Below are positions 9,215-53,140 of a DNA stretch of 64,000 nt, piece by piece. The notes under the pieces are model-generated. The model ran no database searches, was not told the origin of the DNA, and saw only the letters and a list, made by a program, of their open reading frames with translations. The stretch's first letter is position 1; every line of letters starts with the position of its first letter. The position numbers were made by a program, and so were the translations under genes. The stretch covers positions 3,995,180-4,059,179 of the forward strand of contig CBDEVZ010000008.1 of assembly GCA_965243735.1 (NCBI GenBank), written 5' to 3'. This stretch comes from an uncultured Candidatus Binatia bacterium. GTDB lineage: Bacteria > Desulfobacterota > Binatia > Bin18.

Positions 9215-9523
9215 TTATTGCTGACGGAAGCGCCGTTCGGATCGGCCCGATTCGCCATCTTTGGTTGAGCGGGACTTCCTGCGGAGCAGTTCCAGTGCCG
9301 TGTACTGAAGGTCCCTCAGGTACGCATTGTCTCTCTTGCCCGTATGCCAATGGGCTATGTCGTTCCGATACTCCTTGAGTTCCTTCGGCGTCCTTTCGCC
9401 TGCGATCACCGTGTCAAGATTATCGAGTTGGAGATATCCGAGGCGTCTCTTCGCATCTTCAAGCGCCTGCCAGAACCGCAGATACCAAAGCCGCAAGTAG
9501 CCGTCGTCCTTGGTCTTGTCCAA
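9215..9523 (-). CDS. hypothetical protein in low-GC island
   Basis: Charged ORF (KELKEYRNDIAHWHTGKRD). It overlaps a less protein-like ORF on the plus strand. No recognisable family. Confidence 0.25.
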   Translation of the reverse strand: MDKTKDDGYLRLWYLRFWQALEDAKRRLGYLQLDNLDTVIAGERTPKELKEYRNDIAHWHTGKRDNAYLRDLQYTALELLRRKSRSTKDGESGRSERRFRQQ

Positions 9524-9576
9524 ATTGTATCAAAGAGGTTGAAAAATGCGGCAGAGAACGTTATTATTCCTAACGC

Positions 9577-9789
9577 ATGAGAAAGTATTTAACAACAGGA
9601 GAGGCTGCTGAATACCTTGGTGTTACACCCTCACGGGTGCGTCAGTATATCGTTGAGGAACGCCTCGAATCTGAGAAATACGGCAGGGACCACATGATTG
9701 AGGAGGATACTCTAGCCGAATTTGCAAGACACGGAAAAAAGAAAAGGGGCCGGCCTAAAAAACAACAGCAAACCTCGCGAATGCGTTGA
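9577..9789 (+). CDS. Excisionase/HTH_17-family helix-turn-helix DNA-binding protein
   Basis: LTTGEAAEYLGVTPSRVRQYI is the classic HTH_17 motif. A basic KKKRGRPKK tail follows. It lies directly upstream of the methyltransferase in the low-GC island. Confidence 0.6.
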   Translation: MRKYLTTGEAAEYLGVTPSRVRQYIVEERLESEKYGRDHMIEEDTLAEFARHGKKKRGRPKKQQQTSRMR

Positions 9790-9810
9790 GAGCATTCCAA
9801 GCTGAAAAAA

Positions 9811-10698
9811 ATGACGACAGTCCTTCAAACAACCGCCGAGACCAATATAGCCCTCCCAACTCGCCAGCATCCGGTCATGACGCTGCATGGGGATGCACGT
9901 GACCTGATTCGACAGTTCCCGGATGACACGTTTCAATGCGTCGTTACGTCGCCGCCGTATTGGGGTGTCAGAGACTATGGCATTGAGGAGCAGATTGGTG
10001 CTGAGCCAGACTTATCCCACTATATTGAGCATCTTGTCGACGTCTTTCGTGAAGTCCGCAGGGTACTGAAGCCTGACGGCACGTTTTGGCTCAATATCGG
10101 TAACACCTACTCATCCGGTGGCAGAAAATGGCGAGATACTGATGATAAGAATAAGGGTCGGGCCATGTCGTACCGCCCGCCAACCCCGCCCGGACTGAAG
10201 AAGAAGGACCTGATTGGGGTCGCCTGGCTACTAGCCCTGGAATGCCAAAAAGACGGCTGGTATCTACGGAATGACATTATCTGGCACAAGCCCAACTGCC
10301 AGCCTGAAAGCGTCAAAGACAGATTTACGGTTTCCCACGAATATCTGTTCATGTTTTCAAAATCCGAGCGATACTATTTTGACCAGGAGGCAATTAAGGA
10401 GAATACGACAAATGGTAACGGACGGAAAAACAGGCGGACGGTCTGGTCGATCAATACGGAGCCCTGTCCGGAAGCGCATTTTGCGGTCTTTCCCAGAGCC
10501 TTGATTCGCCCCTGCATTGTTGCTGGCAGTCGGAAAAACGATATTATCCTTGATCCTTTTTATGGGGCCGGCACGGTTGGGATCGTGACAAAAGAACTCG
10601 GGCGGCGGTGTATCGGCATAGAACTGAATCGTGAGTATCTGGACATCGCAGAGCGAAGGGCGGCAATGGTGCAAACGGTCCTCATTCCTGAGGTATAA
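9811..10698 (+). CDS. DNA methyltransferase, beta-class N4-cytosine/N6-adenine (SPPY motif IV, C-terminal FxGxG motif I)
   Basis: TSPPYWGV (motif IV) comes before DPFYGAGTVG (motif I), which is the beta-class order. SPPY favours an N4-cytosine methyltransferase. Confidence 0.9.
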   Translation: MTTVLQTTAETNIALPTRQHPVMTLHGDARDLIRQFPDDTFQCVVTSPPYWGVRDYGIEEQIGAEPDLSHYIEHLVDVFREVRRVLKPDGTFWLNIGNTYSSGGRKWRDTDDKNKGRAMSYRPPTPPGLKKKDLIGVAWLLALECQKDGWYLRNDIIWHKPNCQPESVKDRFTVSHEYLFMFSKSERYYFDQEAIKENTTNGNGRKNRRTVWSINTEPCPEAHFAVFPRALIRPCIVAGSRKNDIILDPFYGAGTVGIVTKELGRRCIGIELNREYLDIAERRAAMVQTVLIPEV

Positions 10699-11449
10699 AA
10701 AATTCCCACTGTGCATGCACTCGACAAGCATCTTTACTCAAGTTCTTGATCTGTAATTTTCTCTCACCTCCACCGTCAAAGTACAGACTGAAAATGATCT
10801 GGCCGTCCTCATTGCGAACATGACAGTAGCCGGGCTTTGGAAACTGTTTGCTGCCTAGTTTCATTTCCAACTGACCGCTATTGGCGAGCCTGAGGATATC
10901 TATCGGGATTTCAACAAGTTCATATTTCCAGCGCGGGGCCTTTCTGACAGCCCGGAGACTCAGTATCTTCTCATAGCGCTCCAGATGGTTGAGAAACTGG
11001 ATACGCAACCCTTCAAGGTCTCTTGGGTCATCGCCCCAATCTCCTCTCCCCAATTCCATGAATTTGCTGATCCATAAGACGTTTTCCTTAATATTTTTAT
11101 CCGCCTGCGTTTTCAGTGATAATTGGACCCCATCAACGTTAGCGTCATGGCCTGGATTGCCTTTTGGGGCGAGTTCCGCCTCATGGCCACTCATTTTCAG
11201 GACATGGACGAGAACGTATTCAAACTTATCTTTACTGAATGGTTCTGACGAGAAACTATGATGAACCCGCAGCGCATCTCCGAAGTTTTGTAGGATGGTT
11301 TCATCGAACAAATCACTCCCATTTAGGATAAATCTGTGATCGGCCGAGAAAACAGAGACCGCACGCTGAATCCAGTGGAGTTGGCCGGCGGTCAATTCTG
11401 GGATTGAGCGTACCAAGGATTCTATAAGCCGTCGTTTATCGTTATTCAT
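10682..11449 (-). CDS. Putative cognate Type II restriction endonuclease (no recognised family)
   Basis: 255-aa ORF convergent with the methyltransferase and overlapping its 3' end by 17 bp. Low-GC composition. No identifiable family. Assignment rests on context only. Confidence 0.4.
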   Translation of the reverse strand: MNNDKRRLIESLVRSIPELTAGQLHWIQRAVSVFSADHRFILNGSDLFDETILQNFGDALRVHHSFSSEPFSKDKFEYVLVHVLKMSGHEAELAPKGNPGHDANVDGVQLSLKTQADKNIKENVLWISKFMELGRGDWGDDPRDLEGLRIQFLNHLERYEKILSLRAVRKAPRWKYELVEIPIDILRLANSGQLEMKLGSKQFPKPGYCHVRNEDGQIIFSLYFDGGGERKLQIKNLSKDACRVHAQWEFFIPQE

Positions 11450-11489
11450 GCTTTTTCAGAGCTACCCATCAGAGAGAATTGGCTCGTGT

Positions 11490-11858
11490 TCACGCCGGGC
11501 CGTTGCGCAGAATCTGCTTGCGTTCTAACTCTTGTACCTGCTCTGGCGCATAGCCCAGCCATTGGGGCAGGATTTCCCTATTATGCTCGCCCAGTGTCGG
11601 GGTTTGCAGCTCGAAGGTCTGAAAGTCACTGACCAGGATGTAGCGCGGGCGACCGCGCTCGGGCAGGACGTCAAAATAGTCCCCGGCTTTCACGCTCCAG
11701 GCAGTAACTGGAACAACCTGGATCACGGGAACTCGCTCGTTGTATGTGTCGTTGGTGACGATGATACAGGGGCGAATCCTGCCCGTCTCCGAACCTTTCG
11801 TCGGATCAAGATTCACATCAATAACCGTCCCTCGCTTCAACGGGCTCACTTTGGCCAC
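11490..11858 (-). CDS. mazF: Type II toxin, MazF/PemK family endoribonuclease
   Basis: RGTVIDVNLDPTKGSETGRIRPCIIVTNDTYNERVPVIQVVPVT matches the PemK/MazF fold signature. Confidence 0.85.
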   Translation of the reverse strand: MAKVSPLKRGTVIDVNLDPTKGSETGRIRPCIIVTNDTYNERVPVIQVVPVTAWSVKAGDYFDVLPERGRPRYILVSDFQTFELQTPTLGEHNREILPQWLGYAPEQVQELERKQILRNGPA

Positions 11859-12079
11859 TCCGCTAGCGCGGATGTCGTCAGCTCCCGAGTTTCTTCGTCT
11901 TCTGTGTAGACCTCTGAGTAGAGGTCCGCAGACTCCCGTAAACGTTGCCGGGCGAATTCTTCACGCAGACGGTCGAGCGCCATCCGAACAACGGTGCTTT
12001 GATCCTTGAATCCATACGAGCGGCATTCATCGAGAAATTGCAGGTGCGATTCTTCGAGGCTGAATTTTGCTTGGACCAT
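11846..12079 (-). CDS. Antitoxin partner of MazF/PemK toxin
   Basis: 77-aa ORF immediately upstream of the toxin, overlapping it by 13 bp. Acidic C-terminus. Confidence 0.6.
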   Translation of the reverse strand: MVQAKFSLEESHLQFLDECRSYGFKDQSTVVRMALDRLREEFARQRLRESADLYSEVYTEDEETRELTTSALAEWPK

Positions 12080-12202
12080 AGTGACCTCCCTCAGAAGTTG
12101 CCCTTGAGAATGTATGCACCCTACTCCTCATTAGGCAGGTGCTCAATCACGGCTGCGGCTTCTGCTACGGCGCCGTTGGCAATGGGGGGCGTAATCGGCG
12201 TT

Positions 12203-19099: not shown

Positions 19100-20239
19100 T
19101 CACCGGAACTCGGCGACCGACAGCACCAGCCGCACCAGGTCCGCCTGCCGGGAGAGGGACAGCTTGTGGTAGATCCGCTTCAGGTGCCAATAGACGGTGC
19201 CCTCCGTGCGCCCCGTCGTCACGGCCATGTCGCGCACGGTCCGACCCTCGGCCAGCCAAACCGCGATGTGGCTCTCTGACGGGGTGAGGTCCAGGGTGCG
19301 GGCCACAAGGTCAGGATCCAGGCGGGGCTGATAGTTCGGTTCAACCAGCAGCACGAGCGCGGCGACCCACCGTGCCCCAAAGTCCAGTTGGAGCCCGCCC
19401 ACGGGGGTGACGTGGACCACGAAGGCCGGCAACAGGGACGCGCGGCGCAGCAGCATCGAGCCGCTGGCGGGGGTGCCGGCAGTCGGCAGGGCGCGCGCCA
19501 CCAGCCGCGCCAACTGGTCCTGCTCGGTCGGCACGGTGGCCCGCAACAGCCCCTCCGGGTCTGACACTCCATCGCCGCGCCGCAGGAGGTCCCGGGCGCG
19601 GTCATTGGCCTCGATGACCCGCCCCTGACGGTCCAACTGGATGACGCCCACCCGGGTGTTGTTGAGCAGGGCGGTCGCGGAGGCGTCGAAGGCGTCGGCG
19701 CGGACCAGCGCCTGGCGGACACGAACAAACTGGCGCAGATGGGGCAGCAGTCCTCTGATCAGCGCCACCTGCGGAGACCGCCAACCGTCCGGGGCGAGAG
19801 GCTCATAGAGGCCCCAGACCGTGCTGGAGCCGTCTGGCTCGATCAGGCGCACGTTCAGGCAATTCTGGCTGTTGTAGCGGGGCAGGATCTCGTTGTACAT
19901 CGGCGAGGTCTTCAGCTCCTCCTCGGTGTACAGGGCCGTGTTATGCACGAGCTGGCTGTCCGCCAGATGCCGGTAGCGCGGGACGCGTTCGTCCAGGGAA
20001 AAGTAGTGTTCGAAGTACTCGCGCTCCCAGTCGGTGAGGCGCTGCCCCCGGTGGTACACTCCCACGAAGCTACAGCCCCCCAGGGCCTCGTCCTGCAGGC
20101 CTCCGCCGACCGCCAGGACATGGCCCCACAGGCCGCAGGCCTCATCAATCAGGGCCGAGGCCACCGGCCACCGGCCGTCGTAGAGCATGGCGTCGTACAG
20201 CGCGGTAACGATCCGGTCAAAAGCATCTTGGTCACTCAT
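19100..20239 (-). CDS. LuxR-family transcriptional regulator with ~300-aa N-terminal domain of unknown function (paralog 1)
   Basis: C-terminal LuxR HTH (LTPSESHIAVWLAEGRTVRDMAVTTGRTEGTVYWHLKRIYHKL). Start MSDQDAFDRIV is preceded by GGAGG-N7. Roughly 75% identical to the paralog at 53333-54478. Confidence 0.8.
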   Translation of the reverse strand: MSDQDAFDRIVTALYDAMLYDGRWPVASALIDEACGLWGHVLAVGGGLQDEALGGCSFVGVYHRGQRLTDWEREYFEHYFSLDERVPRYRHLADSQLVHNTALYTEEELKTSPMYNEILPRYNSQNCLNVRLIEPDGSSTVWGLYEPLAPDGWRSPQVALIRGLLPHLRQFVRVRQALVRADAFDASATALLNNTRVGVIQLDRQGRVIEANDRARDLLRRGDGVSDPEGLLRATVPTEQDQLARLVARALPTAGTPASGSMLLRRASLLPAFVVHVTPVGGLQLDFGARWVAALVLLVEPNYQPRLDPDLVARTLDLTPSESHIAVWLAEGRTVRDMAVTTGRTEGTVYWHLKRIYHKLSLSRQADLVRLVLSVAEFR

Positions 20240-20385
20240 CACACAACCTCCTCTCTCTCCATCTCTCTCCATTGGCCTTGCCACGCTGCCCACGCGGCCG
20301 CGCCCGCCGGACCACAGGGTCCGTCACTCGGAACGGCGCGGGGAGCAGACATGAACAACATTAGCGCCCCCCTATACCTCATCTC

Positions 20386-20605
20386 TGCACATTTTGTTCC
20401 CCCAAAATTGGTGGATAAATAATAAATTTTAGGGGACTCAGCAAAAAAATTGGGGGGAATTTCAGACGTGTGGCCGGGAATCGTCAGCCCTCCAAAATTG
20501 GAGGGTTTGCAGTTCTATATAGATCATAAAAAGTTATATAAATCGAGATTTTCAGAGACCTACCAAAATTGGAGGCTTGACGGTTCTGTCCATCTTTCAC
20601 AGATT
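20386..20605. promoter_or_regulatory. AT-rich divergent control region. It has the conserved module CACATTTTGTTCCCCCAAAATTGGTGGA...GGGGGGAATTT, four AAAATTGG boxes, and a TTGACGG-N17-CAGATT promoter
   Basis: The 560-bp intergenic region is ~40% GC in a ~65% GC background. The module recurs at 53141-53197 (reverse complement), 55331-55400 and 61612-61680. The TTGACGGTTC...TCTTTCACA promoter recurs at 26601-26647. Confidence 0.5.
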
Positions 20606-20852
20606 GCTACCTAAGTGCAGTTGCAATCAATTATCAATTGAATCACTGAGGCTAAAAATTTTTGCACCCAGCGCCCCGCAGGACACGCGTCGTGTCGGGC
20701 TGGGACTCGAACGAACTCGAAGTGACCTGGAGCAATTCATAGAGGAGGGAGGAAGGAGTGAGGAATGAAGACTTAATCAACGGCACCTAGAGGAACGAAG
20801 ACAAGTGGAAATGACCAAAAACCATTCCAAGAACGCAAAAGGAGAGCACGGA

Positions 20853-22487
20853 ATGCATCGACCGACCCGACTCCGACCCCTGACCCTGACCTTGGCACTG
20901 GGAGCGCTGGTAGCCCTGTTCGGCGCTGGCGCAGCACACGCAACCGACCCCGAAGCCTGTTCCGCTGAGCCCGCGGATGAGGTCCCCTCGAACCGCGTCG
21001 CCCTCTTCGATGTCTACTGGAACAATAGTGACGATAGAAATGACCCGAATTCCAAAACCCTGGTCAACAATCCCTGCCCGCCGACAGTCAGCCATACAGC
21101 AGGTGGTACTGACCCGATTACCGGGCTACCGACACCACCAACCACCACCCGCACCGCCTCCGACATCCACATCGACCACACCATCATCCATATTCCCGAG
21201 TCGGCCAAGCGGACGGTAACCAATAGTAACAGCGAAGATTACGGCGGAGGCTTCTACAATTTCTTGCGCCGTGGGCCGGATGAAGAAAACGGAGATGCCT
21301 CATACGCACCTTCAGCCGAGGTGTATATTGTCCCCGCCTGCGAGAAGACGGCCACGAACCCGTCCCTCTGCCTGGGTGCTTCCGCCGGCCTGCTGACCCC
21401 CGGAGACTGGGCCCCGGACCCCGCGAACCGGAATGAGGGGACCAAGATCCAGTATGAGTTCGAGGCCATTCGGGAACCGGGACACGCCACGCAAGGCTGG
21501 GGCAATGTCTTTGTCTTCAAGATAGAAGAGGACCCAGAAATCCAAGCCCAGAGACCGAGGATAATCTGGCGCACCGACGATGCCGACGACAACGAGTGGA
21601 AGGTCGCCCCCGGTGCCTACGACTATGCCTACTGGGCCTTTACCGAACCGGGTACCTACGTGTTTCACGTCCACGCCAAAGGCCACCCCAATAAGCAGCG
21701 TACCGGCGGTCCCCTCACCACTGCCGACACCGTGACCAGCGAGGTACGGCGGTACACCTTCCAAGTGGGCAATTTGCCCGTGAACCATGAACCGCTCTTT
21801 AATGTTACGCGGAAGGTGACGGAAAACGCCCCCGCCGGGACCAACGTGGGAGAACCCATATTGGTGAAAGACCTGGACGCCGACACCCTGTGTTTCGCCC
21901 TGGACGGACTCGGCGCCCATGAGAACTTTACCATTAACGGCGCTGCGAACGCCGAGAAATGCGGCACGCTGACTGCCGTGAACAGATCCGGGAACGGCCA
22001 GATGAGGGCCCAGATTCAGGTCAAGGCGGGCGCGGATCTGGACTATGAGAGCATCGACTTTTACGACATCAAGTTGTTGGTGAGCGATGGCCAGGACCAT
22101 GAGGGCAATGTCGACCTGTCCACCATCGACGACAGCGTCATAGTGTCCATCAGCCTGAGAGATGACACGTCAGATAATCCGGAAGGACCCAGCAGGAATC
22201 CCTTCTCGGTGACGGCTGAGTACCCATCACCATCAGCAGGAGAGGCAGGGTTTGACTTGGTCGCGACGTGGAATGGCCCCGCAGCAGGTGCGACATTCAG
22301 GTGGTACCGCCTTCCCCATGGCGACGAGGGGTTTCAGGCTGGTACGGACAAAAGGATCACCGTGCGACCCGGCCATACGGGAGCGTGGGAATACTGGGCA
22401 CGGGTGACCTATCGGAATGGCGGTGTCACAAGGACGCGGGAATCCAATCGAGTGAGAGTCGTCTGGCCCTGGCCGTCATCTGAGTAA
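20853..22487 (+). CDS. Secreted cadherin-domain protein
   Basis: Signal peptide MHRPTRLRPLTLTLALGALVALFGAGAAHA. GGAGAG RBS. Cadherin-like repeat (NHEPLFNVTRKVTENAPAGTNVGEPILVKDLDADTL...DYESIDFYDIKLLVSDG). Confidence 0.8.
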   Translation: MHRPTRLRPLTLTLALGALVALFGAGAAHATDPEACSAEPADEVPSNRVALFDVYWNNSDDRNDPNSKTLVNNPCPPTVSHTAGGTDPITGLPTPPTTTRTASDIHIDHTIIHIPESAKRTVTNSNSEDYGGGFYNFLRRGPDEENGDASYAPSAEVYIVPACEKTATNPSLCLGASAGLLTPGDWAPDPANRNEGTKIQYEFEAIREPGHATQGWGNVFVFKIEEDPEIQAQRPRIIWRTDDADDNEWKVAPGAYDYAYWAFTEPGTYVFHVHAKGHPNKQRTGGPLTTADTVTSEVRRYTFQVGNLPVNHEPLFNVTRKVTENAPAGTNVGEPILVKDLDADTLCFALDGLGAHENFTINGAANAEKCGTLTAVNRSGNGQMRAQIQVKAGADLDYESIDFYDIKLLVSDGQDHEGNVDLSTIDDSVIVSISLRDDTSDNPEGPSRNPFSVTAEYPSPSAGEAGFDLVATWNGPAAGATFRWYRLPHGDEGFQAGTDKRITVRPGHTGAWEYWARVTYRNGGVTRTRESNRVRVVWPWPSSE

Positions 22488-22663
22488 TGACGGGTGGCTC
22501 TCCGGTTCCACGCCTTCTGCGACTTCCCGCTTGAGGCGTGGACCTGCCCGGCCCTCCGTTCGTCCTGAGCGTAGCGTAGTAAAGTCGAAGGGCGAACGGA
22601 GGGTCAGAGGTGCAGCAGGGCTACACCTCCCACACACGTAGAGCAAATACCAATGCTGTTCTC

Positions 22664-22747
22664 GTCATTCCTGCTTCCGCAGGAATCCAGCCCCCGACTT
22701 CCAGACCCCGGATCAAAGCCGGACCCCGGACATGATCCGGGGTCCGG
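22664..22747. repeat. Intergenic repeat family 2 (hairpins GTCATTCCTGC..GCAGGAATCCAG and CCCCGGACATGATCCGGGGTCCG)
   Basis: A second copy lies at 52626-52716. Both have the same two palindromic hairpins in the same order. Confidence 0.5.
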
Positions 22748-22757
22748 CAAGACGAGA

Positions 22758-25700
22758 GTGGTTATATTGCGTCGCTTGTTCATCTCTCTGCTGACCCTTG
22801 TCGGTGTTGCCCTGAGCGGGGCGGTTGTCGGCCCTGGCACGGCTCATGCGCAAGGGAGTGACATTGACTTGGCTGTCAGCATAGTCCTTCAGGACAACGT
22901 ACAAAATCCAACCATTACCGTTGCGAATTATGGGTCTGACAACGCGTACCATGTACGGGTTGTGATGAAGGTTGACGGCATTACGCTCGGTACTACGCTC
23001 GGCCGCCCATCGCCAGGCACCGTTGCGCTCCACCCAACTGATTCCACCACTACACTGATTTGGAGCATTCCCCGGATGCCGGGGAATAGAACCTCATACA
23101 AGTATCTATTACGCACGACAGCTTCGACTTCGATAACAGTGGTTCAATATACAGCTACAGTCCATAGTGGCGTTTTCCTTGAGCCCGAGGCATTGCGGCA
23201 CAACAACCACGCCGAAGTCTGGCAGCTGAGAATCTCTGGGACTCGGACCGAGACGCCGGACCCTACATACGCTATCGAGGCGACAGTTGACAATCGTTTT
23301 CCGCAGGCCCAAGGGAGCGTGACCTTTACGCTGGTTGCCAGAAACTTGGCAACGGGAGGCACTGTGGGTCATCTTTCAGATGCTCGGGTAGACGTTCTTC
23401 TGCCTGCGGGGGGCTTGACCTATACATCGCATACCGCTCCAACAGGCACCAGCTATGATTCCAACACCGGGATATGGACCATTGGCGATTGGCGACAGAC
23501 TACCGCCACCCACTCGCTAACGCTGACGGCGACGCTGGCCGCCGACGCCGTGCTGAATGAGCAATGTGTGACCGCGGAAATATCGGCCAAGCCACCGGAA
23601 CCAATTGACGAGACGGTGAACAACCGGAGTACGGTTTGTTTGGGGGTGCTCAACGAGCCCGTGCTGTTCCAGAGCGAGCAGGTTAACCTGTTCACCCCCT
23701 ACCCATGCGTTGGTAATACTACCTCCCCATGCAATAGCCAAGACACAGTGGAAATGCTCGCACTCAAAGCAGAAGGAGAGCAATATATTCTGCCTCAGGC
23801 CACTACCGTTCAAGTATTGGACCCCGAGGGGCGCATCGTTGACGGCGCGAATATCGCGTGGAGGATTCCCTCTAGTGACACTCTCACTTTGAAACCCTCT
23901 ATAGATAATAGCTTGCTCTCTTCTTCTGATTGGACCAAGTGGCTGTGGAAAATAGCAGCAGTGCAACTGCCGACTGGGGGGCACCTCTCCATCGGCCCAG
24001 CAACAAGTACCGCCTTCGCCTATGTACACACTGGGACCAAGGCCCAGCATCCGCCTGGCGGCCTCACAGCCCTGCCCGCGGCCCTGAAGACAGCAGTACC
24101 GGTATGGATCAAATTCGAGGCCCTGGGAACTTACATCGTAAACTTCACTCAGGCAACCGCCCACGCCACCGCTAGTGGCGACTGCGACACCGACGGTGAC
24201 AACACCAACGACGCCCTCTGCGCCACCGAGGCCTACACCTTCCATGTCGGCCCGGTGGCTGAGTTGGCCGTGCGCGACGACGGTCCCAGCCCGGACGCCA
24301 CCTCCAGCCAGCGTGCCTTCACCATCATGGCCCTCAATACCGGCCCGGACTCCGCCCCCGCGGCCAAGGTGACCGTGGACCTGCAAGGCGCCAGTGTCAG
24401 TCCGCCCATTGCCAGCCAGGGCACCTACCGCAGCGGCGAGTGGTTCCTAGGCGAGTTGCAGACCACAGACTACTACCAGACCCTTGGCCAAACCGCCGGC
24501 CCGACCCTGACCTTCATCACCACCGACCCCGTGGATGCCCCCATCACCGCCACCATCACCAACACCCAGGACTACCAGGTGTGCATCGACAGCAGCGGCA
24601 ACGACCTCAGCCACACCACCCAAGCCACCTGCGAAGCCGACACCACCAACGGCGGCAGTTGGCACACCGCCAAGTACTACGACTACATTTCCACCAACAA
24701 CACCGCCACCGTGACCGCGCAGACGGGAACAGCCCCCCCACAGGCGGACATCACCGTCGAGTGGACCGCGCCGGCGGATGTCACCGTGTCCCGCTACCAG
24801 GTCTGGCGCCAGGGCAGCCCCTGGAAGCTGATCGCGGAGGTGCCGACGGGCCAGACCAGTTACACAGACTCCACTGCCGAACCCGGCCGGGCGTATCTTT
24901 ACATGGTCCGGGCCATGGACGCCCAGGGCATCCCTGTGTCGTCAGAGACACTGGTGGCCGCACCACCCCAGACCGGCGGCCAGGGCGGCCAAGACGGTTC
25001 GGGCGGTTCGACCCGTCCTCCCCCGACCGACCACCACGGCAACAGTCCGGCCACCGCCACTCCCCTCGCCCCCACCGCCCGCGTCGGTGGCCTGCTGCAC
25101 TACGGCGACCAGGATTACTTTCGCCTCGTCCTGCCCCACACCGGCCTGCTGTACGTCGAGACCACCGGCTGGAGCAACACCGTCGGCACCGTCTGGCAAG
25201 GCGGCGTCGAACTGGGCAGCGCCGAACTGGGCGGGCGACTGTACAACTTCAAGCTCGGCGTGCCCGTCCAGCCCGGCCCGGTCGTCATCCGGGTGACTGA
25301 GCGGTCGCCGACCGCCTTCGGGACCTACCGCTTGTACACGCGCTTCATCGCCGGGGCGGTCGAGCAACCGCGCCCCATCACCGTGCAGAACGGCCTGGGT
25401 ATGGTAGCCGGCTGGCTGTGTAGTGAAGACCCCGTCGTCCTGGAAATCGACGGCCTGCCCTATCACCCGGCCCCGCAGCCCGCCCCGGTTCCTCCCCCAC
25501 TCCCCCACGTGGTCGGAACCGGCGGCTCCGGGCTGCCGCCCCGGGCGGTTGATCCCCACGAGCTGTGCGACGACACGGCCACCGGCTTTGGCCTGCCCGT
25601 CAACTGGAACCTGCTGGGCGACGGCCAGCACACCCTCATCGCCTACCTGGACGGCATCGAATTCGCCCGCACCCTCGTAGACGTGACGACCCTGGGCGAG

Positions 25701-26291
25701 GAGTTCGTCCACGACGCCCACGGCACCTGTAGCGTGGCCGACTTTCCGCTGCCCGACCACAGCGTCAGCCTGGTGTGGCAGGAAGCCGGCCAGCACTTCG
25801 CCCTGAGCGACGGCCAGCCCCCGCCGTCCGTCGGCGCCACCAGCGCCAGCGATGTGCTCGGCCGGCTGGAAACCCCCGCGCCCAGCTCCTTTCAGAGCGG
25901 CCGGGGCAGCATCAGCGGCTGGGTGTGCGACGCCGAGGCCGTCAGTGTCGAGATCAACGGCACGCCGTATCCGGTCGCCTACGGCACGGCGCGGTTGGAC
26001 GTGGCGGCGGTGTGTGAGACCCCGGCGCCCGGCTTTGGGCTGAGCCTCGACTGGAATCGGCTCGGGCCGGGCGACCACGAGGTCGTGGCCCTGGCCGACG
26101 GGGCGGAGTTCGGGCGGGCCACAGTGCGGGTGACGACCCTGGGCGCGGCGTTCGCGCGCGACGCCGAATCGGCGTTTATACGGGGGCTGGCCGGGGAATG
26201 CGTGGTGGAGGACTTTCCAGCGCCCGGCGAGGCCGTCCATCTGGAGTGGCAGGAGACCACCCAGAACTTCGTCATTACCGGCGTCGAGTAA
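22758..26291 (+). CDS. Giant secreted modular protein: DUF11 repeats - FN3 - PPC-like domain - tandem ~115-aa Cys-containing C-terminal domains
   Basis: Signal peptide (RRLFISLLTLVGVALSGAVVGPGTAHA). Start is uncertain, either GTG 22758 or TTG 22767. DUF11-like (G.W.IGDW...TLT). FN3. PPC motif HYGDQDYFRLVL. Two C-terminal repeats (SGWLC/SGWVC...GFGL..NWN/DWN.LG.G.H..VAL.DG.EF.R..V.VTTLG..F...G.C.V.DFP..G..V.L.WQE..QNF). Confidence 0.8.
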   Translation: MVILRRLFISLLTLVGVALSGAVVGPGTAHAQGSDIDLAVSIVLQDNVQNPTITVANYGSDNAYHVRVVMKVDGITLGTTLGRPSPGTVALHPTDSTTTLIWSIPRMPGNRTSYKYLLRTTASTSITVVQYTATVHSGVFLEPEALRHNNHAEVWQLRISGTRTETPDPTYAIEATVDNRFPQAQGSVTFTLVARNLATGGTVGHLSDARVDVLLPAGGLTYTSHTAPTGTSYDSNTGIWTIGDWRQTTATHSLTLTATLAADAVLNEQCVTAEISAKPPEPIDETVNNRSTVCLGVLNEPVLFQSEQVNLFTPYPCVGNTTSPCNSQDTVEMLALKAEGEQYILPQATTVQVLDPEGRIVDGANIAWRIPSSDTLTLKPSIDNSLLSSSDWTKWLWKIAAVQLPTGGHLSIGPATSTAFAYVHTGTKAQHPPGGLTALPAALKTAVPVWIKFEALGTYIVNFTQATAHATASGDCDTDGDNTNDALCATEAYTFHVGPVAELAVRDDGPSPDATSSQRAFTIMALNTGPDSAPAAKVTVDLQGASVSPPIASQGTYRSGEWFLGELQTTDYYQTLGQTAGPTLTFITTDPVDAPITATITNTQDYQVCIDSSGNDLSHTTQATCEADTTNGGSWHTAKYYDYISTNNTATVTAQTGTAPPQADITVEWTAPADVTVSRYQVWRQGSPWKLIAEVPTGQTSYTDSTAEPGRAYLYMVRAMDAQGIPVSSETLVAAPPQTGGQGGQDGSGGSTRPPPTDHHGNSPATATPLAPTARVGGLLHYGDQDYFRLVLPHTGLLYVETTGWSNTVGTVWQGGVELGSAELGGRLYNFKLGVPVQPGPVVIRVTERSPTAFGTYRLYTRFIAGAVEQPRPITVQNGLGMVAGWLCSEDPVVLEIDGLPYHPAPQPAPVPPPLPHVVGTGGSGLPPRAVDPHELCDDTATGFGLPVNWNLLGDGQHTLIAYLDGIEFARTLVDVTTLGEEFVHDAHGTCSVADFPLPDHSVSLVWQEAGQHFALSDGQPPPSVGATSASDVLGRLETPAPSSFQSGRGSISGWVCDAEAVSVEINGTPYPVAYGTARLDVAAVCETPAPGFGLSLDWNRLGPGDHEVVALADGAEFGRATVRVTTLGAAFARDAESAFIRGLAGECVVEDFPAPGEAVHLEWQETTQNFVITGVE

Positions 26292-26600
26292 GACGCCAAC
26301 GTATCCCCTCCACGGAGGGGGGGCCGACCCGGGGACCCCATCCTCCCCCCCGGCCCGCTGCCCTTTCCCCTCCGGGCAGCGGGAGCCCGGCCCATTCTCC
26401 CCCGGGCGGGGCGGGTGCCACAGCAGCCCGCTCCGAGAGGGGCTGCTGTGGCGGGAAAATCCCCCTCACTCCCCCTTTGTCAACTGCACATGGCGTCATA
26501 CAACGCCGCGAGGCTGCGCTCAAAGGCGTCTCGGTCACTCACCACATAGCCTCTTCGCTCCACCGCCCCGCCAAACGGCCCGTGTCCGCAGGATCGACTG

Positions 26601-26647
26601 CCCCCTAAAATTGGAGGCTTGACGGTTCCATCGGTCTTTCACAAATT
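26601..26647 (+). promoter_or_regulatory. Conserved promoter CCCCCTAAAATTGGAGGCTTGACGG-N17-CAAATT upstream of the NHL-repeat gene
   Basis: Same AAAATTGGAGGCTTGACGGTTC...TCTTTCACA architecture as 20561-20605. Followed by a ~160-nt conserved leader. Confidence 0.45.
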
Positions 26648-26804
26648 AAATGAGATAAAGTTGCAATTACATATTAATGTCAATTAAGTCCTTACCTGTC
26701 CAGTGGAGGCCCTGACTGCGTACTGAGGCCCGCGGTCCCCGAACCGAGCGCTCGGTAAGACCAACGTCATACTGGGTGAAGGTGGAGGACCGGAGGAGCA
26801 AGAG

Positions 26805-29800
26805 GTGTGCAGTAGCGTCCGACCCATTCCCCCGCATCCGAGGCGTCATCCGTTCCGCTTCCCTATTGCGCTGAGTCTGATCCTGGCCGCACTGCTGGGC
26901 GGTACGGCAGGAGCGCAGCAACCTTCTTCATTGATACGCTGGCGGGCCCAAGCTGGCCCTATCCTGACTATCCCAATAGCGTGGCGGTCGCCAGCGACGG
27001 CACCATCTACCTGGCCGACCGCGACAGCCATACCGTCTTACGGGTAGAAACGGACGGGAGCCTCAGTGTCCTGGCGGGAACGGGATTCGCCGGCTACAGC
27101 GGCGACGGCGGAGCAGCAGCGGCAGCCCAACTCAACACGCCCACCGGCGTGGCGGTGACCGCCGATGACGCCACCGTGTACATTGCCGACCGAGCCAACA
27201 ACCGCATCCGCAAGGTCGATGTGGCCACCCGGATCATCACCACGTTCGCCGGGACGGGAAGCGCCGGCTTCAACGGCGACGGCGGGGCAGCAACGGCAGC
27301 CGTCTTGAACCTGCCCATTGGCGTGGCGGTGGACGGCGACGGCAACGTGTACATTGCCGACCTGAACAACCACCGCATCCGGAAAGTGACGGTAGCTACC
27401 GGAGTTATCGACACGATTGCGGGCTCGGGGGCTTACGGCTCCGGGCAGGGCGGCTACGGAGGGGATAACGGGCCGGCAACGGCGGCGCGGCTCAACAACC
27501 CCGTCGGTGTGGCGGTGGACGGCGACGGCAATGTGTACATCGGGGACTGGAGCAACAACCGCGTGCGCAAGGTAGATGTCAGTATGGACCCTCCGACCAT
27601 CACCACGATTGCGGGAAACGGGACCTCCGGTTTCAGCGGTGACGATGGCCAGGCGACTGCGGCTCAGCTTGCGAACCCCTATGGTGTAGCGGTGGCCAGC
27701 GATGGGACGGTGTACATCACCGATTCGACCAACCAGCGTGTGCGCAAGGTGGCCACCGACGGGGTCATTACCACGGTTGCGGGCTCGGGAGCGAGCAGCG
27801 GCGACATCTACGAGGACGGCATCCAGGCAACCGCAGCGCGGCTTGTGAATCCCCGCGACGTGGCGCTGGACAGCAGTGGCAATTTCTATATTGCTATGCA
27901 GGGTCAAAACGACCAAGGCGCCATCCGCAAGGTTGATACCAGCGGGATCATCACCACGGTCGCGGGGGGCTGGACCCGCGGCTTCAGCGGTGACGGCGGG
28001 CCGGCGAAGGCAGCCCGGCTTAATGGAGCCACTGACGTGGCGGTCGACAGCAGCGGCAACGTGTACATTGCCGATTACACCAACAACCGCATCCGCAAGG
28101 TCGATACCAGCGGGATTATCACCACATTTGCGTCTACGGGGATCACGAGCCCCCGTGGCCTGGCGGTCGACAGCAGCGACAACGTGTACGTTGCTCAGAA
28201 CCACCGTATCCTGAAGATTGATGGCAGCACGGCTCCCCCGACCATCACCACAGTCGCCGGAACGGGGAGCAGCGGCTTCAGCGGCGACGGCGGAGCGGCA
28301 ACCTCGGCCCAGCTCGACTCTCCCTATGGCGTGGCAATCGACAGCGCCGGCAACATCTACATCGCCGATGGGGGGAATCATCGTGTGCGGAAGGTCGACG
28401 TCAGTGCGGACCCGCCGACCATCGCTACGTTCGCGGGCTCGGGGAGCCATAGTTCCGGAGGGTTCAGCGGCGACGGCGGAGCGGCAACCTCGGCCCGGCT
28501 CGACTCTCCCTATGGCGTGGCAATCGACAGTGACGGCAACGTGTACATTGCCTGTTATTTCAATCACCGGGTCCGCAAGGTCGACGTCAGTGCGGACCCG
28601 CCGACCATCGCTACATTCGCGGGCTCGGGGAGCCATAATTCCGGTGGCTTCGGCGGCGACGGCGGGGCGGCGACCGCAGCCCGGCTTAACAGCCCCTACG
28701 GCGTAGCGGTGGCCAGCGATGGGACGGTGTACATCGCCGATGCGAACAACCGCCGCATCCGGGCCGTGGCGACCGACGGGACGATTAACACAGTGGCGGG
28801 AACGGGGACGGGGATCACCTTACCAGGCGTACCCGACGGCAGCCTGGCGACCGCTGCCACTGTCTATTTTCCCAGAAAAGTCGCAGTCTCCAGCACCGGC
28901 GCTGTGTACATCGCCTGGAGTAACCTGGTGAGCGTGTTGACGACAAACGGACCGCCACAGGCGCGTGACGCCAGCCCAATGACGCCAACAGGGACGCAGG
29001 CTATCATCGCTCTACCGGTATCCGACCCGAACGGTGATCCGATGACCGTAACGGTGAGCACGCCGCCAACAAACGGCACGACGACGGTCTCCGGCACTAC
29101 CATCTACTATACGCCGAACGCGGGCTTTACCGGCGTTGACACCTTCGCGTACACGGTCTCCGACGGCCAGGGCGGCAGCGCCACGGCAACGATCAGAGTC
29201 AGGGTGGGAGCCGAAGCCGGGGCCCCGCCCCCGCCCCCCGCGGACGGCGCAGGCGGCGCAGGCGGGGCGGGCCGGCGCCAGCCAACCGACCACCACGGCA
29301 ATAGCCCGGCCACCGCCACTCCGCTGGCTCCCACCGCCCGCGCCGGCGGCCTGCTGCACTACGGCGACCAGGATTACTTTCGCCTCGTCCTGCCCCACGC
29401 CGGCCTGCTGTACGTCGAGACCACCGGCTGGAGCAACACCGTCGGCACCGTCTGGCAAGGCGGCGTCGAACTCGGCAGCGCCGAACTGGGCGGACGGCTG
29501 TACAACTTCAAGCTCGGCGTGCCCGTCCAGCCCGGCCCGGTCGTCATCCGAGTGACCGAGCGGTCGCGAACCGCCTTCGGGACCTACCGCTTGTACACGC
29601 GCTATCTCCCTGGGTCGATTGACCACCCGCGCCCCCTCACCGTCCAGAACGGCCTGGGCATGGTAGCCGGCTGGCTGTGCAGCGCCGACCCCGTCGTGCT
29701 GGAGATCGACGGCCAGCCCTACTACCCGGCCCCGCTGCCCGCGCCGGTCTCCCCGCCGTCCGACCTCGTGATCAGCCTCGGCGGCTCCGGGCTGCCGCCC

Positions 29801-30550
29801 CGGGCGGTTGATCCCGATGAGCTGTGCGACGACACCGCTACCGGCTTTGGCCTGCCCGTCAACTGGAACCTGCTGGGTGACGGCCAGCACACCCTCATCG
29901 CCTACCTGGACGGCATTGAATTCGCCCGCACCGTCGTAGACGTGACGACCCTGGGCGAAGAGTTCGTCCACGACGCCCACGGCACCTGTAGCGTGCCCGA
30001 CTTTCCGCTGCCCGACCACAGCGTCAGCCTGGTCTGGCAGGAAGCCGGCCAGCACTTCGCCCTGAGCGACGGCCAGCCCCCGCCGTCCGTCAGCGCCACC
30101 AGCGCCAGTGAGGTGCTTGGCCGGCTGGAGACCCCCGCGCCCGGCTCCTTCCAGAGCGGCCGGGGCGTCATCAGCGGCTGGGTGTGCGACGCCGAGGCCG
30201 TCAGTATCGAGATTGACGGTACACCGTATCCGGTCGCCTACGGCACGGCGCGGTTGGACGTGGCGGCGGTGTGTGAGACCCCGGCGCCCGGCTTTGGGCT
30301 GAGCCTCGACTGGAATCGGCTCGGGCCGGGCAACCACGAGGTCGTGGCCCTGGCCGACGGGGCGGAGTTCGGGCGGGCCATGGTGCGGGTGACGACCCTG
30401 GGCGCGGCGTTCGCGCGCGATGCCGGATCGGCCTTCGTGCGGGGGCTGGCCGGGGAATGCGTCGTCGAGGACTTTCCAGCGCCCGGCGAGGCCGTCCATC
30501 TGGAGTGGCAGGAGGCCACGCAGAACTTCGTTATCACCGGCGTCGAGTAG
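26805..30550 (+). CDS. Giant secreted NHL-repeat beta-propeller protein with cadherin-like Ig domain, PPC-like domain and tandem C-terminal domains. The signal-peptide exon is out of frame with the body
   Basis: GTG 26805 with GGAGGAG RBS encodes signal peptide MCSSVRPIPPHPRRHPFRFPIALSLILAALLG in frame 0. The body from about 26930 is in frame 2 (..YPNSVAVASDGTIYLADRD). It has more than 11 NHL units (YIAD..NNRIRKVD). The C-terminus is ~95% identical at DNA level to the preceding gene. Confidence 0.7.
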
Positions 30551-30827
30551 GGGTGCCGCGGGCGTCTTCCCTCCCGGGCCGGCTACTGCAAAAAGGCACC
30601 CACCCCGGCCCTCCAGGCCACCCCTCCGAGGAGGGGAACTGCCCTCATCCCCGCCTTGGAGGGGCGATACAAATGAGATACAGTTGCAATTACATATTAA
30701 TGTCAACTAAGTCCTCGCCTGTCCGGTGGAGGTCCTGATTGCGTACTGAGGCCCGCGGTCCCCGAACCGAGCGCTCGGTAAGACCAACGTCATACTGGGT
30801 GGAGGTAGAGGACCGGAGGAGCAAGAG

Positions 30828-33800
30828 GTGTGCAGTAGCGTCCGACCCATTCCCCCGCATCCGAGGCGTCATCCGTTCCGCTTCCCTATTGCGCTGAGTC
30901 TGGTCCTGGCCGCACTGCTGGGCGTGGGCGCACCTCCGGTCCAGGCCGCGCCCAGCTTCACCGTTGACAGCATTGACCCGGTGGTCTTCACCACGTCGCC
31001 TGGGACCGGGTCGGGTTGTACGCAGCCCACCAACTCCGTCACCCTGCCCGACGCCACCGGCACGGGGACCATATCCTACACCATCACCCCCACCCTGCCC
31101 GCCGGCATCACGCTCTCTGGCAGGGATCTCACCGCCGCACCAGCGACGGTGCAGGCCCAGGCCGCTACGGCCTACACCTACACTGCCACCGACGACGCCG
31201 ACGCCCAGACGGCCTCCCTCACCTTGACCATTGAGGTCGTGGACGAGAGAGCCGTGTTGCAGACCCTCTACAATGCGACTGACGGCCCCAACTGGAAGAC
31301 CACAACCGGCGGCTGGGCCAATCCCATCACGGCCACCTGCCTGGCGGACTTGCAAGGCGTCACGCTCACGAGTGGGCGGGTAGCCAGAATCTCTCTCATA
31401 GAAAACAAGCTGACCGGCTCGATTCCCCCTGAACTGGGCAAGCTAACCGGCCTGACCCGTCTCTTCCTCAACAGCGTCGAACCGGCCGACCCGAATGACA
31501 ACCAACTGACCGGAGAGATTCCCCCTGAGCTGGGCAAGCTGACCAGATTGACCCAACTCCAACTCCACAACAACCAACTGACCGGAGAGATTCCCCCTGA
31601 GCTGGGCACCCTGACCGAGCTGACCTGGCTCTGGCTCTACAACAACCAACTGACCGGAGAGATTCCCGACCTGAGCAAGCTGGCCAAGCTGAGACTGCTC
31701 CACCTCCACAACAACCAACTGAGTGGGGCGATCCCCGCCGGGACGGATAATGCTAACAATCCGACCGGGTTGGCCAAACTCACCAACCTGGAGGTGCTTA
31801 GCCTCTCCGACAACCAACTGACCGGAGAGATTCCCCCTGAACTGGGCACCCTGGCCAACCTGCTAAATCTCTATCTCGACAATAACCAACTGAGTGGGGC
31901 GCTTCCCACAGAGTTGGGCAGCCTCGCCAACCTGAGCGGCCTCTTTCTCAACAACAATCGACTGGAGGGCGCGCTTCCCACGGAGTTGGGCAACCTGACC
32001 TACCTGACCTATCTCTGGCTCCACAACAACCAACTGAGCGGGACCATCCCGACCCAATTGGACAGCCTCACCAGCCTGATCTGGCTCTATCTCCACAACA
32101 ACCAACTGAGCGGGACCATCCCGACCCAATTGGGCAGCCTCACCAGCCTGCAACGGCTCTATCTCCACGACAACCAACTAACCGGGGCGCTTCCGACCCA
32201 ATTGGGCAGCCTCGCCAGCCTGCAAGGGCTCTATCTCTACAACAACCGACTGAGCGGGGCGCTTCCCACGGAGTTGGGCAGCCTCGCCAACCTGCAACAG
32301 CTCTATCTCTACAACAACCCCCTGAGCGGCCCGGTGCCGTCAGGATGGGGCGGCAGCACGTATCCTCTCACGAGCCTGACTGATCTTGACCTCAGCTACA
32401 CCAACCTGACCGGCACGCTGCCAACCGCCTTGGCCACCCGGCGGGATGCCGATCCCCCCACCCTCACCGTGACGTGGGACACCATCGTTGACCGGACCTC
32501 CCTGCCCACCGAAGTGGCGAGTGTCCGCATTGAGTGGGCTTCCCCCCCCGATCCGACCGTCACGGATCCCACCGCCTTCAGCGTGGGGCCGCCGGCCGGC
32601 ACCACCTTCCCCGAGCCCCGGCAAATCTATACCCTGACGGCCCTCGATAGTGGCGGGGACGCCGTAACGGACCGCCTGAGCGCCTCCATAGAGGTGTGTC
32701 TGCCCCGACCGGCGGGCCTGACGGCCCCACTCTATGTGTACCGCTACCAGCCGGCGGCGGACACGACCCAGCCGGGACGCTGGGAGCGTTTGACCGCGGG
32801 GTGGCGCGTCAGCGATAGGGAGGTGTGCGCCACAGTCTCGCAGTTCTCCGACTTCCAGGTCGGCACGTACACGCCTCCGCCGCCTCCGCCACCGTCACGA
32901 CAAGGCGGCGGGGGTGGTCGTCCCCGCGACGACCATGGCAACTCCGCCAGCCGGGCTACTCGGATTCCGCTGACCGCCCGCATGGTCGGACAGATCGGCA
33001 CCCGCAGCGATGTCGATTATTTCACGCTCACCGTGCCCCACGCCGGAATCCTGGTCGTCGAGACCACCGGCTCGACCGATACCCGCGGTACGGTGTGGCA
33101 GGACGGCGCACGGCTGGCCACCGCCGATAGCGGGGGGACGGGGCAGAACTTCCGGCTCAGCGTGCAGGCCGAAGCCGGACCGGTGGTGATTGCCGTACGG
33201 GGCAACGGGCGACAGACCGGCCGCTACGTCTTACAGACGACCCTGGTCGTCGGCTTTCTGGAGAACCCTAGCCCGGACTCCTTCCAGAGCGGTATCGGCA
33301 CCCTGTCGGGCTGGGTATGTGAGGCCGACGAGGTCGTGCTGGAAATCAACGGCACACCCTTTTCTGCCGCCTACGGCACGGCCCGCAGCGACACCCAAGA
33401 CACGTGCGGAGACACGGACAACGGCTTCGGCCTGCTGTTCAACTGGAACGAGCTGGGCGACGGCCGGCACGAGGTCGTGGCCCTGGTCGATGGGGTCGAG
33501 CTGAGCCGCACCAGCGTGACCGTCACCACCCTGGGCACGCCGTTTCTGCGGGAGGCAAGCGGGACGTGTGAAGCCACCGACTTTCCGAGCACGGGTGAGC
33601 ATGTGACCCTGGTATGGCAGGAAGCCAAGCAGAACTTCGTCATCACCGACGGCGGTAGCCCGCCCACGGGCAGCTCTGCCGTTGAAAGCGAAGTCACCGG
33701 CTTTCTGGAGAACCCCGCCCCCAACTCCTTCCAGAGCGGGGTCGGGCTGCTGTCGGGCTGGGTGTGTGAGGCGGATGGCGTCACCCTGGAGATCGACGGT

Positions 33801-34106
33801 CAGACGGTGACAGCTGCCTACGGCACTGACCGAGCCGACACGGCCGACGCGTGTGGCGATACGGACAACGGCTTTGGGCTGCTGTTCAACTGGAACGAGT
33901 TGGGCGACGGGGACTACGAGGTCATCGCCCGGGCTGACGGGGTAGCGTTTGACCGGGCCACAGTACGGGTGGTGACGCTGGGCGAGCCGTTTCTGCGCGA
34001 GGCGCGCGGGACGTGTGAGGTGGTGGACTTTCCAGAGGTCGGCGACACGGTGACGCTGACCTGGCAGACAGCCCAGCAGAACTTCGTCATCACCGCTGTC
34101 CGGTAG
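30828..34106 (+). CDS. Giant secreted plant-type LRR protein: putative Ig domain - LRRNT-like cap - ~20 LRRs - PPC-like domain - tandem C-terminal domains
   Basis: Intact 1092-aa ORF with the same signal peptide as the NHL gene. LRRs such as LTGEIPPELGKLTRLTQLQLHNNQLTGEIP are plant LRR-RLK-like. PPC motif SDVDYFTLTVPHAG. Two SGWVCEAD... repeats ending QNFVITAVR. Confidence 0.85.
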   Translation: MCSSVRPIPPHPRRHPFRFPIALSLVLAALLGVGAPPVQAAPSFTVDSIDPVVFTTSPGTGSGCTQPTNSVTLPDATGTGTISYTITPTLPAGITLSGRDLTAAPATVQAQAATAYTYTATDDADAQTASLTLTIEVVDERAVLQTLYNATDGPNWKTTTGGWANPITATCLADLQGVTLTSGRVARISLIENKLTGSIPPELGKLTGLTRLFLNSVEPADPNDNQLTGEIPPELGKLTRLTQLQLHNNQLTGEIPPELGTLTELTWLWLYNNQLTGEIPDLSKLAKLRLLHLHNNQLSGAIPAGTDNANNPTGLAKLTNLEVLSLSDNQLTGEIPPELGTLANLLNLYLDNNQLSGALPTELGSLANLSGLFLNNNRLEGALPTELGNLTYLTYLWLHNNQLSGTIPTQLDSLTSLIWLYLHNNQLSGTIPTQLGSLTSLQRLYLHDNQLTGALPTQLGSLASLQGLYLYNNRLSGALPTELGSLANLQQLYLYNNPLSGPVPSGWGGSTYPLTSLTDLDLSYTNLTGTLPTALATRRDADPPTLTVTWDTIVDRTSLPTEVASVRIEWASPPDPTVTDPTAFSVGPPAGTTFPEPRQIYTLTALDSGGDAVTDRLSASIEVCLPRPAGLTAPLYVYRYQPAADTTQPGRWERLTAGWRVSDREVCATVSQFSDFQVGTYTPPPPPPPSRQGGGGGRPRDDHGNSASRATRIPLTARMVGQIGTRSDVDYFTLTVPHAGILVVETTGSTDTRGTVWQDGARLATADSGGTGQNFRLSVQAEAGPVVIAVRGNGRQTGRYVLQTTLVVGFLENPSPDSFQSGIGTLSGWVCEADEVVLEINGTPFSAAYGTARSDTQDTCGDTDNGFGLLFNWNELGDGRHEVVALVDGVELSRTSVTVTTLGTPFLREASGTCEATDFPSTGEHVTLVWQEAKQNFVITDGGSPPTGSSAVESEVTGFLENPAPNSFQSGVGLLSGWVCEADGVTLEIDGQTVTAAYGTDRADTADACGDTDNGFGLLFNWNELGDGDYEVIARADGVAFDRATVRVVTLGEPFLREARGTCEVVDFPEVGDTVTLTWQTAQQNFVITAVR

Positions 34107-52716: not shown

Positions 52717-53140
52717 ACATGACGAAAGCGTACTGGCAAGGCTACAACTTATCGTAAACCGTTCCAGGACCTGCGCCCGGCGCGCCCGCTTGCGCCATAC
52801 CTGCCACCCTCGGCTATTCTTGCCCACCGCAAAGAACAGCGGCTCTGCCATATCCAGCCCGATTGTTGTCGCCTGCATCGTGCTCCCTGCTGTGACTCCC
52901 GATGGATGTCGTTGGTCTCCATCCTGGCTCACTCGAAGCCATAATGGAAACGGGAGGGTCCATCCCATCGCCCGACACGGCTACACTGTCGCGCTTCCCC
53001 CTTTGGCAAAGCCTGCCCTGAGCTATGTGTCGAAGGGGGGAGTGCGGGGAATGTACCCGACACAGCAGCCACCCTCGGAGCGGGAGGGACAGGAAGACCG
53101 GCCATTTTTCCGGCTGTCTGACTCGGTCCACTAAATTTTG

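Follow-up and report, generated by a model that had tools for sequence, protein, structure and literature searches.

In the lux-box and tra-box systems of LuxR, TraR, LasR and RhlR, a dimeric regulator recognises, through a C-terminal GerE/LuxR helix-turn-helix (HTH), a dyad of 16-20 bp that overlaps or abuts the -35 element, and the regulator, encoded beside its target, often controls its own expression. The operators of LuxR and TraR are centred at about -42 to -45. CRP at -41.5 (class II) offers a comparable arrangement, i.e., a dimer site abutting the -35 of an imperfect core promoter. In VqmA, a PAS domain senses the ligand and dimerises, while the HTH selects the promoter and binds DNA (PMC8284805). 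We describe here a repeated box in a 64-kb stretch of DNA (the whole stretch that was analysed, hereafter the window), whose nearest public loci belong to assemblies of Candidatus Binatia/Binatota, a group for which a literature search found no regulatory studies. In layout the locus resembles the lux-box and tra-box systems, with a dyad of similar length beside or across the -35 and a LuxR-type HTH gene next to the putative target. It differs from them in that the box sequence is unrelated to the lux box, several sites stand in tandem, and the adjacent regulator LuxR1, of about 380 aa, has two PAS-like domains and no Pfam match to an autoinducer-binding domain; nor did an acyl-homoserine-lactone synthase gene come to notice.

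The box is a real, non-random, specific and dyad-symmetric motif. It forms a near-palindrome of 16 bases, CCnCCAA-AA-TTGGnGG, with arms CCnCCAA and TTGGnGG of 7-8 bp around a 2-bp centre, and its symmetry is of the extent seen in operators (about 16-20 bp). The motif AAAATTGG has nine matches in the window against 0.61 expected from dinucleotide shuffles and 0.54 from shuffles preserving local composition in 50-nt blocks, which bears out the repeated boxes noted in a preliminary description of this DNA. Seven distinct sites carry at most one mismatch to CCNCCAAAATTGGNGG, at 20399, 20489, 20560, 26602, 53171, 55343 and 61623, and all seven are intergenic. The last three were absent from the preliminary description; the sequences that it quoted do all occur, but the consensus that it gave, (C/T)C(A/T)AAAATTGG, contains a surplus A and the sites fit CCNCCAAAATTGGNGG. 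It had named a similar frequency of boxes in unrelated A+T-rich intergenic DNA of this genome as evidence that would speak against its reading. Only five of the 30 segments of the window with less than 45% G+C carry boxes, therefore the box is no general property of A+T-rich DNA here. A further copy of AAAATTGG, at 38894, lies within a coding region, lacks the flanking arms and is probably due to chance. As a separate observation, the window contains a low-G+C island at 9400-12100 (50-54% against about 64%), with many A+T-rich segments and zero boxes, which may be foreign DNA.

The intergenic region upstream of luxR1 (19103-20239, minus strand) contains three of these sites. Box 1 (CCCCCAAAATTGGTGG, 20399-20414) has no mismatch, is invariant in the related loci L013, L063 and L001, and is assigned to the minus-strand luxR1 promoter, with its centre about -42.5 from the predicted start. 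The core of that promoter (20371-20402, minus strand), of the type that we call class B, comprises GGGGAACAAAATGTG (20388-20402) and then a -10-like TATAGG (20371-20376). Box 3 (CCCTCCAAAATTGGAGGG, 20488-20505) is an 18-bp dyad with 8+8 perfectly complementary arms, whose 16-base form at 20489-20504 matches CCNCCAAAATTGGNGG without mismatch; no core promoter was recognised next to it. Box 4 (CTACCAAAATTGGAGG, 20560-20575), with one mismatch, abuts the -35 of a class A core promoter on the plus strand (20577-20605), made up of TTGACG (20577-20582), a 17-nt spacer and CAGATT (20600-20605). This promoter points to the gene of a 560-aa secreted protein (20805/20853-22487), then the DUF11/fn3 gene (22653-26291). 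The preliminary description had called the ORF at 20805-22487 a cadherin, but the domain searches gave it no cadherin match.

Four boxes had been proposed near luxR1. Three of them are those at 20399, 20489 and 20560, which fit CCNCCAAAATTGGNGG, but the copy given at 20448 does not: box 2 (GCAAAAAAATTGGGGG, 20441-20456), 42 bp from box 1, is degenerate, with three mismatches and a right half only, and it is further decayed in the orthologue in L063. Midway between boxes 1 and 2 lies a half-site not described before, ATAAATTTTAGGGGAC (reverse complement CCCCTAAAAT..., 20422-20437), in which TTTAGGG is invariant in the orthologues, and full dyads occupy the same position in the paralogues of L061 and L014. 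Box 1, the half-site and box 2 thus fall within 42 bp, in steps of about 21-23 bp that keep them in helical phase. The same triple arrangement, with steps of about 21.5 bp and full dyads, precedes luxR2 and the paralogues in L014 and L061. Helical phasing, which the preliminary description had suggested checking, holds for this group and not for all four boxes: of the spacings of 42, 48 and 71 bp only the first spans integral turns, and boxes 3 and 4 each fall out of phase with the box before them.

Two classes of core promoter accompany the box. In class A, the box is followed after 1 bp by TTGACG, N17 and CAGATT (20577-20605) or CAAATT (26619-26647), and the targets are the 560-aa secreted-protein gene with the DUF11/fn3 gene, and the NHL gene. 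Two details of the preliminary description need amending here. The spacing that it gave as TTGACGG-N17-CAGATT is in fact TTGACG-N17-CAGATT, equivalent to TTGACGG-N16, and the box does not overlap the -35 hexamer at the two promoters that it discussed but abuts it across a 1-bp gap. Class B, which it did not report, consists of CCACCAATTTTGGGGGAACAAAATGTG, about 10 nt and then G(T/G)ATRGG, and its targets are luxR1, luxR2, the tetR gene and a secreted-protein/subtilase operon. Besides the luxR1 copy, class B cores with a box are found at 53179(+), 55350(-) and 61630(-), and none occurs without a box in the window. As computed from the predicted -10 hexamers, the centre of the box falls near -44.5 at class A promoters and near -42.5 at class B promoters.

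Class A matches the sigma-70 consensus at 5/6 positions of the -35 and 3/6 of the -10, short of a canonical sigma-70 promoter. A consensus scan (>=9/12 to TTGACA-N16-18-TATAAT) returned zero sites in 20200-20850 and 26300-26850, calling neither class A promoter because the -10 matches only three of six positions; a terminator consensus scan run alongside found nothing. The position of the box, relative to a start predicted from the hexamers, recalls that of CRP in class II promoters, with the difference that class A has a good -35 (TTGACG) and its weak element is the -10. Boxes of one type stand before two unrelated core promoters, and before genes without homology to each other, which makes the box independent of any one promoter. 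A dyad-symmetric box directly upstream of, or overlapping, the -35 has the look of a site for a dimeric helix-turn-helix regulator.

The boxes at 53171, 55343 and 61623 all belong to class B promoters. The box CTACCAATTTTGGGGG and the core promoter of luxR2 (CDS 53330-54478) lie at 53171-53197 on the plus strand. On the minus strand, box and core of the tetR gene (54652-55257) lie at 55332-55358, with the box at 55343, and those before a secreted-protein gene (60902 to ~61480) at 61612-61638, with the box at 61623. The same 61612-61638 promoter lies upstream of the gene of a 1709-aa subtilase/fn3/cadherin protein (55755-60884, minus strand). A leaderless start at 61590 was considered and rejected, as the ATG is not conserved in L011 and the signal peptide begins further downstream. 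We also observed TetR genes beside luxR2 orthologues, one copy in the window and two in tandem in L011 and L065; every one of these TetR genes has a box and a class B promoter to itself. The window promoter that is homologous to the promoter of the second TetR gene in those two loci instead precedes the secreted protein and the subtilase.

The near-identical promoter that had been noted before the NHL gene is indeed present, the 22-mer AAAATTGGAGGCTTGACGGTTC occurring exactly at 20565 and 26607. The NHL-gene box (CCCCTAAAATTGGAGG, 26602-26617) has one mismatch to CCNCCAAAATTGGNGG and is followed by the class A core TTGACG-N17-CAAATT (26619-26647, plus strand). From the box to the -10 hexamer, 35/40 positions are identical between the box 4 promoter and the NHL promoter. 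The promoter described earlier as conserved between the supposed cadherin and NHL genes stands as an observation, but the likeness comes largely from descent. At 55 bp before the NHL box there is a relic of a luxR paralogue (26423-26559, minus strand), comprising the first ~36 codons and the beginning of the 5' UTR (tblastn 26545-26423, E=1e-4; 54/71 nt identity over 26489-26559). The relic marks the DNA upstream of the NHL gene as a decayed duplicate of the entire luxR1 intergenic region, minus about 300 bp, and shows that regulator and target promoter duplicate together. The NHL box has a left flank resembling that of box 3 (10/13 positions) and a right side resembling that of box 4, which weakly suggests that it arose by deletion between the two. 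The box-to-(-10) segment is better kept than the luxR relic, which is consistent with selection, although the margin is not large. A dispersed intergenic inverted repeat was also seen, in which GGAAAATCCCCCTCACTCCCCC is followed by TTTGnCAAAGGGGGAAGC, often after a GGCTGCTGT hairpin. It occurs at 26454-26490, 62286-62307 and about 53010-53075 (minus strand), as well as in L061, L063 and L064, and the luxR relic cuts short the copy at 26454.

Downstream of both class A promoters lies a leader motif, GTTGCAATnAnnTATnAAT, with three copies against 0.01 expected. The first (GTTGCAATCAATTATCAAT, 20620-20638, plus strand) is invariant in orthologues and has a TTGCAAC variant in L002. The second is GTTGCAATTACATATTAAT (26660-26678, plus strand), and the third (30683-30701) belongs to the LRR gene's duplicate leader, which lacks a promoter. 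A downstream motif, TGCA(A/G)TTGCAATCAATTATCAAT, is likewise invariant in the orthologous luxR1 intergenic regions, and in orthologues the palindrome TGCAATTGCA is found inside the leader motif. The leader motif, some 13-15 nt past the -10 hexamer, may be a second operator, though it stands at differing distances from the -35 in different loci (36-44 nt). The NHL leader and first 97 coding bases (26648-26901) are 96% identical to those of the LRR gene (30671-30924), and the duplicate begins exactly after the -10 hexamer, without box or promoter, which suggests a recent gene conversion and an LRR gene that is co-transcribed or otherwise promoted. An RNA element in these leaders was rejected: an Rfam scan of 20200-31000 gave three sub-threshold chance matches only, none of them in the leaders, and the leader folds are not unusually stable (z-scores -0.9 and -1.4).

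Several other features of these transcribed regions were recorded. The leader of the 560-aa gene contains an indel of ~95 nt at 20641-20735 with a GACACG/CGTGTC hairpin (fold z = -0.9), present in the window and L001 and missing from L013 and L063, and the purine-rich 3' part of the leader at 20735-20852 (GAGGAGGGAGGAAGGAGTGAGG...ATAGAGGAACGAAGAC) is kept even in L002 and L003, where LuxR is 62% identical. In the NHL gene, the signal-peptide ORF (26805-27047) and the NHL-repeat ORF (26981-30550) lie in different, overlapping frames, with the change of frame at about 26900-26915; its paralogue, the LRR gene (30828-34106), shares this 5' end and is open in one continuous frame. The NHL gene may be a pseudogene with a frameshift or use an internal start, or the assembly may be wrong here. 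The three large secreted proteins DUF11/fn3, NHL and LRR have in common repeated C-terminal modules of ~450 nt (25347-26280, 29606-30539 and 33246-34095), some pairs of which are 91-97% identical in DNA.

LuxR1 has tandem PAS-like domains and a LuxR/GerE HTH and is the candidate box-binding protein. Pfam places a GerE HTH at its C-terminus (E=8.7e-6) and scores PAS_8 at 20.6, below the cut-off of 21.8, and the NCBIfam matches are confined to the HTH and far below their cut-offs. Neither Pfam nor NCBIfam detects an autoinducer-binding domain in LuxR1, the feature by which quorum-sensing LuxR receptors are recognised. Its AlphaFold model (pLDDT 82) contains two alpha/beta sensor-like domains and the HTH. 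The best Foldseek matches are the PAS/LOV-LuxR-HTH one-component regulators VqmA (Vibrio) and EL222 (Erythrobacter) and the quorum-sensing receptors RhlR and SdiA, with probability 1.0 but low TM-scores, and the fold matches to RhlR and SdiA stay below a TM-score of 0.3 for the LuxR1 query. VqmA and EL222 are the closest structural counterparts of the model, weak overall (TM-scores of 0.2-0.35, sequence identities of 15-20%). LuxR1 has two sensor-like domains and is not their orthologue. The recognition helix TVYWHLKRIYHKL is identical in LuxR1 and LuxR2, so that both probably read the same box. The PAS-LuxR family to which they belong has more than 2,000 homologues at E <1e-10, with several paralogues per genome.

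Comparison across related loci links the box to this family. Three orthologous loci (LuxR 93, 80 and 72% identical) show no change in boxes 1, 3 and 4 or in either core promoter, and box 2 and the stretch between boxes 3 and 4 diverge, in a footprint that is only moderately informative as it covers close relatives with 76% mean column identity. The gene of every close LuxR paralogue has a box-bearing promoter. The gene of an 11,739-aa protein in L014 is preceded by three to four boxes, one of them a perfect GTCCACCAATTTTGGTGGAC, L004 has a perfect CCACCAATATTGGTGG 146 bp upstream of a LuxR gene whose product is 62% identical, and across the 21-kb loci L013 and L014 boxes are confined to these regulatory regions. 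In more detail, L014 (11340-11480 and 11815-11840) has tandem units of 52 bp with a box in each and, some 180 bp before the 11,739-aa gene, a perfect palindrome of 20 bp; this gene follows a LuxR paralogue.

Beyond the close relatives, a distant set of 34 non-redundant loci with LuxR homologues of <=65% identity (190 kb) contains seven occurrences of CCAA-W(1-2)-TTGG against 1.08 expected. Five of them lie <=400 bp from luxR gene ends against 0.16 expected, a number reached in 0/300 shuffles, and no TetR homologue is present in the flanks of the distant loci with these dyads. The box is thus found near a LuxR-family gene and co-occurs with such genes across genomes. Other homologues have different A/T-centred dyads, CCTCCCATTTGGGAGG, CCTTCAATTTTGAAGG and CCCCGTCAAAATTGCGGGGG, alongside changes in the recognition helix, an association that is anecdotal. 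Pfam gave no informative matches for the genes downstream of the boxes in L022, L024 and L033. The arrangement is not universal: before the target gene of L002 and L003 the left half of the box is all that remains (CTACCAGTAATTATC-TTGACA), and luxR is preceded there by an ordinary, boxless TTGATA-N18-TATAAT promoter. The A/T core of L064 points the other way with respect to a class B core, which fits a symmetric dimer site and speaks against an oriented contact with polymerase. A fixed orientation of AAAATT relative to transcription was rejected on account of the same inverted core. The link to the LuxR paralogues suggested in the preliminary description, whose idea is broadly sound though borne out only in part, thus has comparative data in its favour, and binding of the box by LuxR is a prediction.

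Taken together, we consider it fairly probable, on sequence evidence, that the boxes are operators of the adjacent tandem-PAS/LuxR-HTH regulators, i.e., LuxR1, LuxR2 and paralogues with the same helix. A regulator dimer would bind the 16-18-bp dyad CCnCCAA-AA-TTGGnGG, centred about 42-45 bp upstream of the predicted transcription start and abutting or overlapping the -35. At the regulators' own class B promoters, the box and one or two further dyads ~21 bp apart would provide autoregulation. At the class A promoters, with their strong -35 and weak -10, and at the other class B promoters, it would control operons of large secreted or surface proteins (DUF11/fn3, NHL, LRR and subtilase) and the TetR regulator. 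The position of the box favours activation of the class II type, with repression by occlusion as the alternative. The identity of the binder, the sign of regulation, any cooperativity and the start sites are all predicted from the DNA. Several findings count against this reading: the hexamers that give the predicted starts are not accepted by the consensus scan, most close relatives are too alike for a sharp footprint, L002 and L003 depart from the arrangement, a tetR gene within the regulon carries the box, and part of the likeness between promoters stems from duplication.

TetR proteins bind palindromes similar to the box, and TetR dimers occupy palindromes of 15-17 bp and autoregulate. The box could accordingly be the operator of another regulator, such as the TetR-family protein encoded at 54652-55257 or an unlinked factor, with the luxR genes merely members of its regulon. 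The box in the tetR promoter is what such a regulator would have, and LuxR homologues have TetR homologues as neighbours in L011 (two copies), L065, L017, L002 and L015. We nevertheless regard this as unlikely, because boxes accompany luxR with no TetR in the flanks in nine loci (L001, L013, L014, L063, L004, L021, L022, L024 and L033), and because the variant dyads appear, if anecdotally, to track variation in the LuxR recognition helix.

The two other explanations assign the box no dedicated regulator, and both seem to us very improbable. It might be part of the promoter architecture, with AAAATT as a proximal UP-element-like contact for the alpha subunit of RNA polymerase, or as part of an extended -35 read by an alternative (ECF-like) sigma factor. 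The A/T tract does lie at about -47 to -42, and the class B core, GGAACA-N16-GGTATA, contains AAC in its -35 and GTAT in its -10; this core, we presume, loosely resembles ECF promoters. Neither contact would account for the conserved and dyad-symmetric G+C-rich arms, for box 3, box 2 and the tandem boxes of L014 that have no adjacent core promoter, for one type of box preceding two different types of core, or for an A/T core that can be inverted relative to the core promoter (L064). The boxes could also be functionless, neutral leftovers of recent segmental duplication or gene conversion among paralogous luxR-target modules. Such events have left traces here: the DNA upstream of the NHL gene derives, with decay, from the luxR1 region, the class B modules have homologous flanks, and the leader at 26648-26901 is 96% identical to 30671-30924. 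Against this, the box-promoter segment was kept (35/40) better than the relic (54/71) while about 300 bp between them were lost, and boxes stand before non-homologous genes and are perfectly symmetric in distant lineages. Each of the rival explanations is thus disfavoured by the evidence, and LuxR-family binding is the reading that we retain.

A further extension of LuxR-family binding is speculative, and we think it quite unlikely to hold. The LuxR paralogues, alike in helix and box but each set beside a giant surface or secreted protein of its own, could make up a cross-regulated network selecting the adhesin-like proteins to be displayed, and the boxes might also serve as recombination points at which new promoter fusions arise. 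The latter idea comes from the likeness of the NHL promoter to a fusion of box 3 and box 4 beside a luxR relic, and from the 52-bp tandem units in which the boxes of L014 are set.

The design itself is conventional, with a dimer site next to the -35, autoregulation and divergent target genes, and we report it as the prediction of an operator, and of its regulon, from a lineage not studied before. Its value lies in providing a testable regulon, consisting of a motif, a candidate regulator family and target promoters, for an uncultured phylum in which, to our knowledge, no transcription factor has been studied experimentally. It would also tie the control of very large proteins, secreted or at the cell surface, to the PAS-LuxR regulators, a large and uncharacterised family.
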